Positions 56,053 to 57,993 of a DNA stretch of 57,993 nucleotides are shown here, one piece after another. Within the stretch, counting starts at the first letter, position 1, and every line of letters starts with the position of its first letter. Both the position numbers and the translations under genes were made by a program. The notes below the pieces were generated by a model. The model was not told the DNA's origin and did not search any database. It saw only the letters and a program-made list of their open reading frames with translations. The stretch is from Candidatus Liptonbacteria bacterium (GTDB taxonomy: Bacteria > Patescibacteriota > Minisyncoccia > UBA6257 > JACOXY01), in assembly GCA_016182095.1 (NCBI GenBank), contig JACOXY010000001.1, positions 1 through 57,993 of the forward strand, given 5' to 3'.

Positions 56053-57048
56053 TTAAAAGTCATCTTGAATTTTTTGCCTAACAGCTTCCCTTAACTTATG
56101 CGCATTGCCATGAATTAAGAGACCGGCATAAGAAGCAATAGTCGCGTGTTTGGGTTTGCCAAAAAGACGCTGTTCCATTCTTTGTTTTGTTTTTGTCCGA
56201 AGCACGCGGTGTTCGGTAAAATGCACCCATCCCAAGAAATCAACTCCGGAAGAGACAGTTTTAAAGACAATTTTCTTTGGGTGAAGCGTGAGCCTAAGTC
56301 GTTCTTCCAAAAAATCAGCGATTTTGGGCAAATACTCCAAAAGTATATCTGGGTCTCGCGAGAGCATTACAAAATCATCGGCGTATCTGATATATCGTCT
56401 AATTTCCAAATCACGCTTAATAAACTGGTCAAGTTCGTTTAAATACAAATTTATAAAAAGTTGGCTTGTTAAGTTCCCCAATGGAATCCCCCTGCCTTTC
56501 ACGCCACCTGAAAAACTATTTATTACTTCCTGAATAACTGCCAAAAGCCGCTTATCCCCAATGTGCTTCTCTAATATTTTTATGAGGATCGCGTGATTCA
56601 CCGAAGTAAAACATTTTGCGATATCACATGTTAGCGCTAAAACAGTTTTCGTTCCATTAGCTCCTTCTTTCCCCACAAATGCCGCTAATCTTCTTAATGC
56701 TTTATGAGTGCCCTTCTTTTTTCTACAAGAATAAGAATCATAAATAAAATATCGTTCAAAATATGGATAGAGCGCCTCATAAATCGCGTGGTGCGCCACG
56801 CGATCGCGCACAGACGCTTTATGAATATCGCGCGGCTTTGGGTCAGAAATTTTAAAATGAGCGTACCCACCATGTTTATACTTGCCGCCTAAAATATCGC
56901 GTTCCAGACCGCGTAAATTGTCCACTAGCCGCGCGGCAAATTCCGCCACGTCGACTTTTCTACGTTTACCCTTACTAAACGTTATCCACGCGTGAAACAA
57001 ATTTTGAAAAGAAAAAGTGTCTTCAAAGTTTGGAATTCTATAATTCAT
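56053..57048 (-). CDS. DGR-type reverse transcriptase
   Basis: KPRDIH..SVRDRV.HHA, SYSCRKKKGTH, DIAKCF, GIPLGNLTSQ (LGxxxSQ typical of DGR RTs), YADD; 331 aa with no maturase/endonuclease tail. Confidence 0.95.
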   Translation of the reverse strand: MNYRIPNFEDTFSFQNLFHAWITFSKGKRRKVDVAEFAARLVDNLRGLERDILGGKYKHGGYAHFKISDPKPRDIHKASVRDRVAHHAIYEALYPYFERYFIYDSYSCRKKKGTHKALRRLAAFVGKEGANGTKTVLALTCDIAKCFTSVNHAILIKILEKHIGDKRLLAVIQEVINSFSGGVKGRGIPLGNLTSQLFINLYLNELDQFIKRDLEIRRYIRYADDFVMLSRDPDILLEYLPKIADFLEERLRLTLHPKKIVFKTVSSGVDFLGWVHFTEHRVLRTKTKQRMEQRLFGKPKHATIASYAGLLIHGNAHKLREAVRQKIQDDF

Positions 57049-57084
57049 ATTATATATGATACAATTTTTACAATAAGAATAACT

Positions 57085-57461
57085 ATGAACGCCCCCCCCC
57101 CCAACAGAAGCTTTCCGGCATCGCGCAAAAATTGCTTGCCACCTATAAGGCCTGGCACGAAATCACTCGCCACATTCCCAAAATGCGGCGCTATTCACTG
57201 GGCGTAAAAATTGATTCGCTTTTTAGTGATGTTATTGAGCTTATATCCATTGCACAATTTTCCGTTAAAGAAAAACGAATTCCCGTTATTGAACGTGCAA
57301 TAGCTAAAAATGATGTTTTGAAATTTATGCTCTATGTTCTGTGGGAACTTCAGGGTATTGAAGAGAAACATTTTTTGGCGATTGCTCCGCAACTTGAGGA
57401 GGTAGGCCGTATGCTCTACGGCTGGAAACAACGTATGGAAAAAGAAAACCGCCCTGCGTAA
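57085..57461 (+). CDS. avd: Avd-like accessory variability determinant (four-helix bundle); natural ATG at 57085 is out of frame because of a C11 tract, in-frame TTG at 57132
   Basis: RYSLGVKID, LKFML..L.EL..I, EVGRMLYGW; adjacent to RT and TR. Confidence 0.85.
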
Positions 57462-57485: not shown

Positions 57486-57630
57486 GTATCGAACAGAACA
57501 ACACGGCAATTGCCATTCCAACCGTTCGTGAGCCAATTCGCATTCCGATGCCATCTCGCATCCGTGGCATTCCACCCCACACACGGCACATTCCAGTTGC
57601 CATTAGCGCCGCGAAGAATTACACGAAAAA
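57486..57630 (-). ncRNA. DGR template repeat (TR); 5' boundary approximate
   Basis: Minus strand reads RVILRGANGNWNVPCVGWNATDARWHRNANWLTNGWNGNCRVVLFD with 9 AAY codons; 57489-57509 is identical to 57972-57992. Confidence 0.9.
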
Positions 57631-57869: not shown

Positions 57870-57964
57870 TTTCTAAATTTAACGCAAGGGCAAAAATCAA
57901 AAAATCAATCTGGCATTGGCAATAATCCAAAACCCAAAAAACTACCTGTAGTGAGCTTGCCGAA

Positions 57965-57993
57965 CTATTTTTCGAACAGAACAACACGGCAAC
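57965..57993 (-). CDS. 3' end of the DGR target gene (variable repeat/IMH), truncated by the window edge
   Basis: Encodes xGT-C-R-V-V-L-F-E-K-TAG; 21-nt identity to TR, then TR A versus VR G at 57510/57993. Confidence 0.85.

Follow-up and report, generated by a model that had tools for sequence, protein, structure and literature searches.

The avd gene of the DGR cassette described here raises the question of how it can be expressed, since its start codon and the body of its reading frame lie in different frames and are separated by a run of eleven cytosines. To our knowledge, the control of DGR activity in nature is largely unknown, and nonstop mutagenesis would ruin a variable protein that already fits. 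The original prediction had proposed the tract as a candidate phase-variable switch for the DGR. The window, i.e. the whole stretch of 57,993 nucleotides that was analysed, was compared with related loci, with attention to the reading frame, the length of the tract and the position of the avd start.

The start codon of avd (ATG, 57085-57087, plus strand) begins 7 nt ahead of the tract. It is followed by AACG at 57088-57091 and, as read directly from the sequence, by C11 at 57092-57102 (plus strand), the proposed site of slipped-strand switching. At this length, translation from ATG 57085 yields MNAPPPNRSFPASRKNCLPPIRPGTKSLATFPKCGAIHWA and ends at the TAA at 57205-57207, so that the out-of-frame product (57085-57207, plus strand) comprises 40 codons. 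The Avd body (57103-57461, plus strand) is encoded in the -1 (or +2) frame relative to ATG 57085, which is open from 57060 and closed by the TAA at 57459-57461. C9 and C12 place the two segments in the same frame, while C10, C11 and C13 are out of frame. The restored product reads MNAPPP(P)QQKLSGIAQKLLATYKAWHE... and is an Avd of 125 aa (C12) or 124 aa (C9); its N-terminus at C12/C9 can also be written MNAPPP(P)QQKLSGIAQKLL... The position of the tract, the stop of the ATG frame at 57207 and the restoration of a 124-125 aa Avd at C9 or C12 had all been part of the original prediction and are borne out by the sequence and by frame arithmetic. The locus thus has a repeat longer than the slippage threshold in its 5' coding region, 7 nt past the ATG, whose length sets the frame, as in SSR contingency loci. 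No other C or G run of at least 8 occurs in the window, and about 0.006 C/G runs of at least 11 are expected at a G+C content of 43.6% (hand calculation).

A possible fallback start, TTG at 57132-57134 (plus strand), is the sole ATG, GTG or TTG in the Avd frame before the Met codon at 57183. No Shine-Dalgarno-like motif was seen upstream of it, and a start at this codon, which corresponds to residue 25 of the structural model, would cost the protein the conserved KLSG motif and the first 5 residues of its 19-residue helix 1. The public gene call for the window avd starts at the internal Met 57183 (57183-57461, 92 aa, P0001).

By its predicted fold, the product of this frame is an Avd protein. 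The matches to Pfam bAvd PF22296 (7.9e-09; 36.4 bits, cut-off 40) and NCBIfam DivGenRetAVD NF033474 (1.4e-12; 47.8, cut-off 80) are both below the curated thresholds, and a precomputed PF22296 hit is found on most homologues of 50-69% identity. For the open frame as it stands in the window, AlphaFold predicts four helices (residues 20-38, 41-67, 70-96 and 102-129; pLDDT 93.4), the first of which begins at the G codon 57117-57119. A sequence search of the PDB with the window Avd gave no match, whereas the fold search identified the Avd of a Bordetella phage as best match (4DWL chain C; TM 0.86, rmsd 1.9 A). Structures of the bRT-Avd complex (8UB7, 8UBB, 8UBE and 8UB8) came next. As in other Avd proteins, the product is small and basic (pI 9.65), and it is encoded 36 nt from the reverse transcriptase (RT) gene with the template repeat (TR) nearby. 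An Avd of the Bordetella type would in addition assemble into a homopentamer, bind the RT and be needed for cDNA to be made.

The RT gene (56053-57048, minus strand; RVT_1 1.3e-22) is divergent from avd. The two start codons are separated by an A+T-rich spacer of 36 nt (57049-57084), in which a consensus promoter scan found no promoter. The RT ATG is 44 nt from the tract, which lies outside the RT ORF in the window, and the RT frame of the window has no start codon beyond the tract; a stop codon between RT and repeat is present in 15 of 42 loci. The TR (57489-57606, minus strand) begins 28 nt after the avd stop and was delimited by a 21-nt repeat and by translation; its 5' limit is approximate and was set by analogy with the 118-nt TR of a relative, L024. 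The minus-strand frame of the TR is rich in Asn and Trp (NGNWN...NGWNGN) and contains many AAY codons. The 3' end of the variable repeat (VR) of a target gene (57972-57993, minus strand) repeats the end of the TR, and the VR is cut by the end of the window; the 22 nt inside the window contain one difference from the TR, at base 57993, and it falls on a minus-strand A. The hallmark of a DGR is an RT accompanied by a TR and a VR that differ from each other at adenines of the TR. In L024, 17 of 17 TR/VR mismatches are located on minus-strand A. The arrangement target(-), TR(-), avd(+), RT(-) corresponds to the B3 architecture, which Wu et al. 2018 (PMC5758913) report for 90% of their CPR DGR set.

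Two further observations concern the variable regions. In the VR of L024 (L024:3721-3861), each of the four runs examined contains two alleles, with 15 positions that differ between them and a ratio of about 2:1. These alleles show directly that the DGR of that population has been active in the past. Together with the A-only mismatches, they characterize the L024 DGR as active in kind, as judged from sequence. The same two alleles are present at about 2:1 in two runs with a C10 tract and in two runs with a C9 tract, and the unassembled VR depth of L024 is seemingly larger in the C10 runs (n=4, contig-level data). VR diversity thus did not clearly follow the ON/OFF state of the tract in this strain. 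In the window, positions 57895-57993 have 2-5 times the flanking depth in all four runs in which this locus was found, and at 57895 the contigs also connect to another upstream sequence (TTATAATCATAACAAGGCC...). The VR-end region is therefore repeated elsewhere, perhaps in a second target gene or a dispersed palindromic repeat.

To place the tract in a comparative context, 106 homologues were collected by protein search, and DNA was obtained for 117 loci (37 from CPR/Patescibacteria MAGs and 80 from metagenome contigs). RT and avd are divergent and adjacent in 92 of the 98 loci with an RT hit. Full-length homologues start with M..PPP..KLSGI, and about 30 homologues are called from an internal MRRYSLG Met, like the 92 aa call of the window, which suggests that their frames are broken upstream. 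All 48 C/G runs of at least 9 in the 522 kb of these 117 loci fall at the avd/RT head. After removal of duplicates, C9-C13 (G9 in one case) is found a few bases past the ATG in 38 distinct loci, so that the poly-C/poly-Pro start that the original prediction suggested looking for in homologues is indeed kept. The tract joins the ATG to the Avd body in frame (ON) in 12 loci, and the body is shifted (OFF) by +1 in 14 and by +2 in 12 (chi-square against a uniform distribution, p=0.90). The Avd body is nevertheless intact in 38/38 loci, with 0 stops in 95 codons, and the peptide KLSGIAxKLL behind the tract is kept in ON and OFF loci alike (38/38). A start of the form ATGAA(Y) followed by the repeat is likewise common to ON and OFF homologues. 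The repeat is thus maintained at the orthologous site in 12 ON and 26 OFF loci with intact bodies; other repeat types at this site are described below.

Several avd heads show particular arrangements. Two ATGs in different frames and 4 nt apart precede the tract in L001 (2950-2975), L044 and L045 (ATGaATGtca-Cn); C9 and C10 therefore both give full Avd in these loci, and two of three frames are ON. Shortened or interrupted tracts (C6, CCCCCTCCC, ACCCCGGCC) are found in L020, L046 and L070 and likewise do not bring the upstream ATG into frame; either the switch may be locked OFF in these loci, or the start may have moved downstream. In L024 (2961-2975), L117, L033 and L011, the poly-G on the RT strand ends 4-6 nt before the RT ATG, i.e. 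in Shine-Dalgarno position, and the repeat might also serve RT translation in these lineages.

The type of repeat is not fixed. Among the nine controls without a C/G run and without the in-frame ATG discussed below, five carry (GA)9-14 at the same site, and all five of these distinct loci (L029/L103, L032/L107, L098, L100 and L111) are out of frame. They belong to a sister clade, and their repeats are located about 45-55 nt before the helix-1 codons. (TC)10 is found at the avd head of L030/L106 (one lineage) and G9 in L025, and every (GA) or (TC) repeat of at least 7 units in the loci falls at the avd-head site. In total, a repeat of some type occupies this site in about 45 distinct related loci. 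Viewed on the RT tree, loci with a repeat are spread over the whole divergent-avd clade (support 100/100) and have repeat-free loci nested among them; the (GA)n loci and the G9 locus L025 form one group (support 100/100), and the four loci of other architecture are without repeat. Because C, G, GA and TC types interchange at the site, the conserved feature is a slippage-prone repeat as such and neither proline nor a sequence motif. Selection of poly-Pro as protein was considered and rejected, as G9, (GA)n and (TC)n substitute for poly-C and CCC is not the favoured Pro codon in the ORFs of the window.

Tract lengths differ between near-identical genomes as well as between samples of one strain, and this supports the reading as a switch. 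Four pairs of loci differ in tract length in near-identical DNA: L024/L117 (1 mismatch in 6312 nt, C10 vs C9), L001/L045 (2 mismatches, C10 vs C9), L003/L052 (C10 vs C7) and L104/L105 (C11 vs C12). The L024 strain was compared across 12 runs at the level of contigs. A clean C10 is present in four runs (depth 9-90x) and a clean C9 in four others (depth 3-37x), while contigs end inside the tract from both sides in the remaining four (depth 15-108x), the pattern to be expected if several lengths are mixed. The strain of L045, a second case, behaves in the same way. The differences between runs partly follow study boundaries (the P2 runs are all C10), and a library effect on the consensus length may contribute to them.

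Taken together, the C11 tract probably acts as a contingency switch that works by slipped-strand mispairing and controls avd and, through it, DGR mutagenesis; the consensus of this clone is OFF. A heritable, random on/off switch is the most likely reading because a length-unstable repeat holds the same spot in dozens of relatives. The phase-variable switch proposed in the original prediction thereby gains support from the conserved site, the mixed frames and the length polymorphism in relatives. Mechanistically, slipped-strand mispairing during replication would add or remove a C, and we infer slippage to be the cause of the length changes. With a tract length divisible by three, such as C9 or C12, ATG 57085 and the Avd body would form one reading frame for the full four-helix protein; at other lengths, C11 included, translation would end after 40 codons, and Avd would be absent in the OFF state. 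The RT of the Bordetella DGR makes cDNA only in complex with Avd (PMC6182149). By analogy, an OFF tract would stop mutagenesis, because Avd would be needed in this DGR as well; out-of-frame cells would then produce no or very little mutagenic cDNA, and the state of the tract would affect mutagenesis. Targeted hypermutation would then be confined to a subpopulation of cells that arises stochastically and whose ON state is heritable and reversible. The OFF state may be partial if a truncated Avd is made from TTG 57132, and slippage during transcription or translation could make it leaky.

The last point can be extended to a rival explanation, in which RNA polymerase or ribosome slippage restores the frame in a fraction of products and the tract sets the level of Avd instead of a binary state encoded in the DNA. 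Tracts of at least 9 nt correspond to about the length of the RNA:DNA hybrid and allow realignment without mismatches, and the tracts found here are of this size. An intact Avd body in 26 of 26 out-of-frame loci also demands that Avd is expressed often enough. Leaky expression might include tRNA-Pro +1 shifts on CCC-C and could coexist with switching at the DNA level. As the main explanation of the tract it is nonetheless unlikely: the two shift directions are about equally frequent (14 vs 12), unlike what one programmed frameshift would give; the homopolymer is replaced at the same site by (GA)n and (TC)n, which are classic substrates of DNA slippage; and the length differences are seen directly in the DNA. 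Programmed ribosomal frameshifting or transcriptional slippage of a fixed type was rejected, as a +1 shift would be required in 14 loci, a +2/-1 shift in 12 and none in 12, and the motif varies.

A second rival holds that the tract is non-coding, with Avd translated from TTG 57132 and the repeat acting as a leader, or as a promoter or leader element of RT that tunes transcription. It draws on the very short divergent region, in which the tract is 44 nt upstream of the RT ATG, on the relatives with poly-G 4-6 nt before the RT ATG and on the uniform spread of the upstream-ATG frames. This spread fits a non-coding repeat as well as a coding one, and the case for coding, as argued from sequence, is carried by the repeat-free controls and the missing downstream starts. 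Of 32 distinct loci that lack a C/G run, 23 have an in-frame ATG at -90 to -24, compared with 12 of the 38 loci in which a run is present (Fisher p=0.0016). Where there is no repeat of any type, the in-frame ATG is nearly always there. The repeat-free relatives start at an in-frame ATG 33-63 nt upstream of the TTG position, so that homologues starting at the TTG, an alternative raised in the original prediction, were not encountered. Several OFF loci have no ATG, GTG or TTG in the Avd frame before +60 (codon 20), and the peptide ahead of the tract is kept between ON and OFF relatives, e.g. MNTNQEVT (L018) and MNTNHEVT (L014). For these three reasons, the upstream ATG is regarded as the true avd start. 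In addition, the TTG lies inside helix 1 and past the point where the Avd profiles start; the conserved KLSGI segment and the first 5 helix-1 residues precede it, and C, G, GA and TC repeats share no common motif on either strand. The repeat can be anywhere between 5 and 67 nt from the RT start, so that a promoter of fixed geometry is not seen, and a role as RT promoter spacer was set aside as unlikely on this ground. A purely non-coding tract is thus quite improbable.

According to a third explanation, the true tract is in frame and the consensus is wrong owing to a sequencing or assembly artefact. C/G runs of this length are prone to error, several sequencing runs have contigs that break in the tract, and the depth drops over 56983-57093 in run X2. 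C11 is however present without a gap in the Logan contigs of four runs (four groundwater samples from one study) and is not a one-off assembly slip, because all four carry it independently. For the consensus to be at fault, errors would be needed in two thirds of the 38 loci, across many studies and assemblers and in C9 tracts too; dinucleotide repeats at the same site are likewise out of frame, and the L024 strain shows a clean C10 at 90x and a clean C9 at 37x. A homopolymer sequencing error, which the original prediction had named as an alternative, is therefore judged very improbable in view of the four C11 runs and of the out-of-frame (GA)n loci in the sister clade. No variation in tract length was seen in the window's own strain, with C11 in 4/4 runs at the level of Logan contigs, from which rare variants are dropped.

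The depth profile of run X2 was inspected separately. Over 56983-57093, across the A+T-rich spacer and the tract, contig depth falls from about 100-112 to 22.8. A hidden variant was rejected as the cause of this dip: at both 56982 and 57094 the contig breaks where the assembly branches into Nextera adapter, and no other contig was present. The probable cause is that a short fragment was lost between two transposase hot spots.

Finally, decay, in which the frameshift would have inactivated avd in a DGR that is being lost, is scarcely credible. All four samples do have an out-of-frame consensus, but Avd body, RT and TR are intact in the window, and open bodies and long repeats are retained in 26 of 26 out-of-frame relatives, where decay would be expected to bring stops and loss of the tract.

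A broader reading has an even chance of being correct, namely that the repeat is ancestral and integral to the inverted-avd DGR cassette, the dominant one in CPR/Patescibacteria, and makes targeted hypermutation phase-variable. Second-order selection would then keep the repeat through the turnover of poly-C, poly-G, (GA)n and (TC)n, and a minority of cells would diversify the target protein while the majority keep the proven variant. Such an ancestral switch would explain how DGRs spare adapted variable regions in organisms where transcriptional regulators are almost absent. A heritable, stochastic frame switch in avd would amount to bet-hedging at the level of evolvability, with a contingency locus gating a hypermutation machine, and would make repeat-mediated phase variation a conserved design in environmental ultra-small bacteria and not just in host-adapted pathogens. 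Tract length in metagenomic reads could also serve as a readout of the fraction of a population in which the DGR is active. A practical consequence concerns annotation: avd is truncated or missed by gene callers in about two thirds of the loci, a systematic mis-annotation, and DGR censuses may therefore under-count Avd.

Full-text searches found no literature that links DGRs or Avd to repeat tracts or phase variation. The CPR B3 DGRs surveyed by Wu et al. 2018 (PMC5758913) share the order target(-), TR(-), avd(+), RT(-), and no mention of a repeat tract, an avd frameshift or phase variation was found in the passages of that survey that were searched. The Avd of the BPP-1 DGR (4DWL, PMC6182149) resembles the window Avd in its four-helix bundle, its basic pI and its position adjoining RT and TR. 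It differs in sequence (about 20% identity) and in that the window avd is inverted relative to TR and RT and encodes, through the repeat, an N-terminal leader with a Pro run.

As for the switch itself, the closest counterparts are poly-G/C contingency loci, which occur in Campylobacter jejuni, Neisseria, Haemophilus and Helicobacter. Intragenic loci of this kind also include examples from Bordetella pertussis (PMC1891110) and Mycobacterium tuberculosis (PMC10334774). Shared features are a homopolymer of at least 9 in the 5' coding region, a shift of the ORF frame by one-base changes, a length that is polymorphic within otherwise identical strains (here in relatives) and a repeat that is kept at the orthologous site. 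Those loci are found in host-adapted pathogens, whereas the bacteria considered here are free-living or episymbiotic groundwater CPR; and they control surface or restriction-modification genes, whereas a helper of targeted hypermutation is concerned here. The avd tract is also not part of a genome-wide phasome, because no other such tract is present in the window or in the related loci. In phasevarions, i.e. SSR-switched mod methyltransferases (PMC5149525), a repeat in one enzyme gene flips a population-wide programme, much as proposed for avd; there it is methylation-dependent expression that changes, whereas here it would be the rate of targeted diversification.
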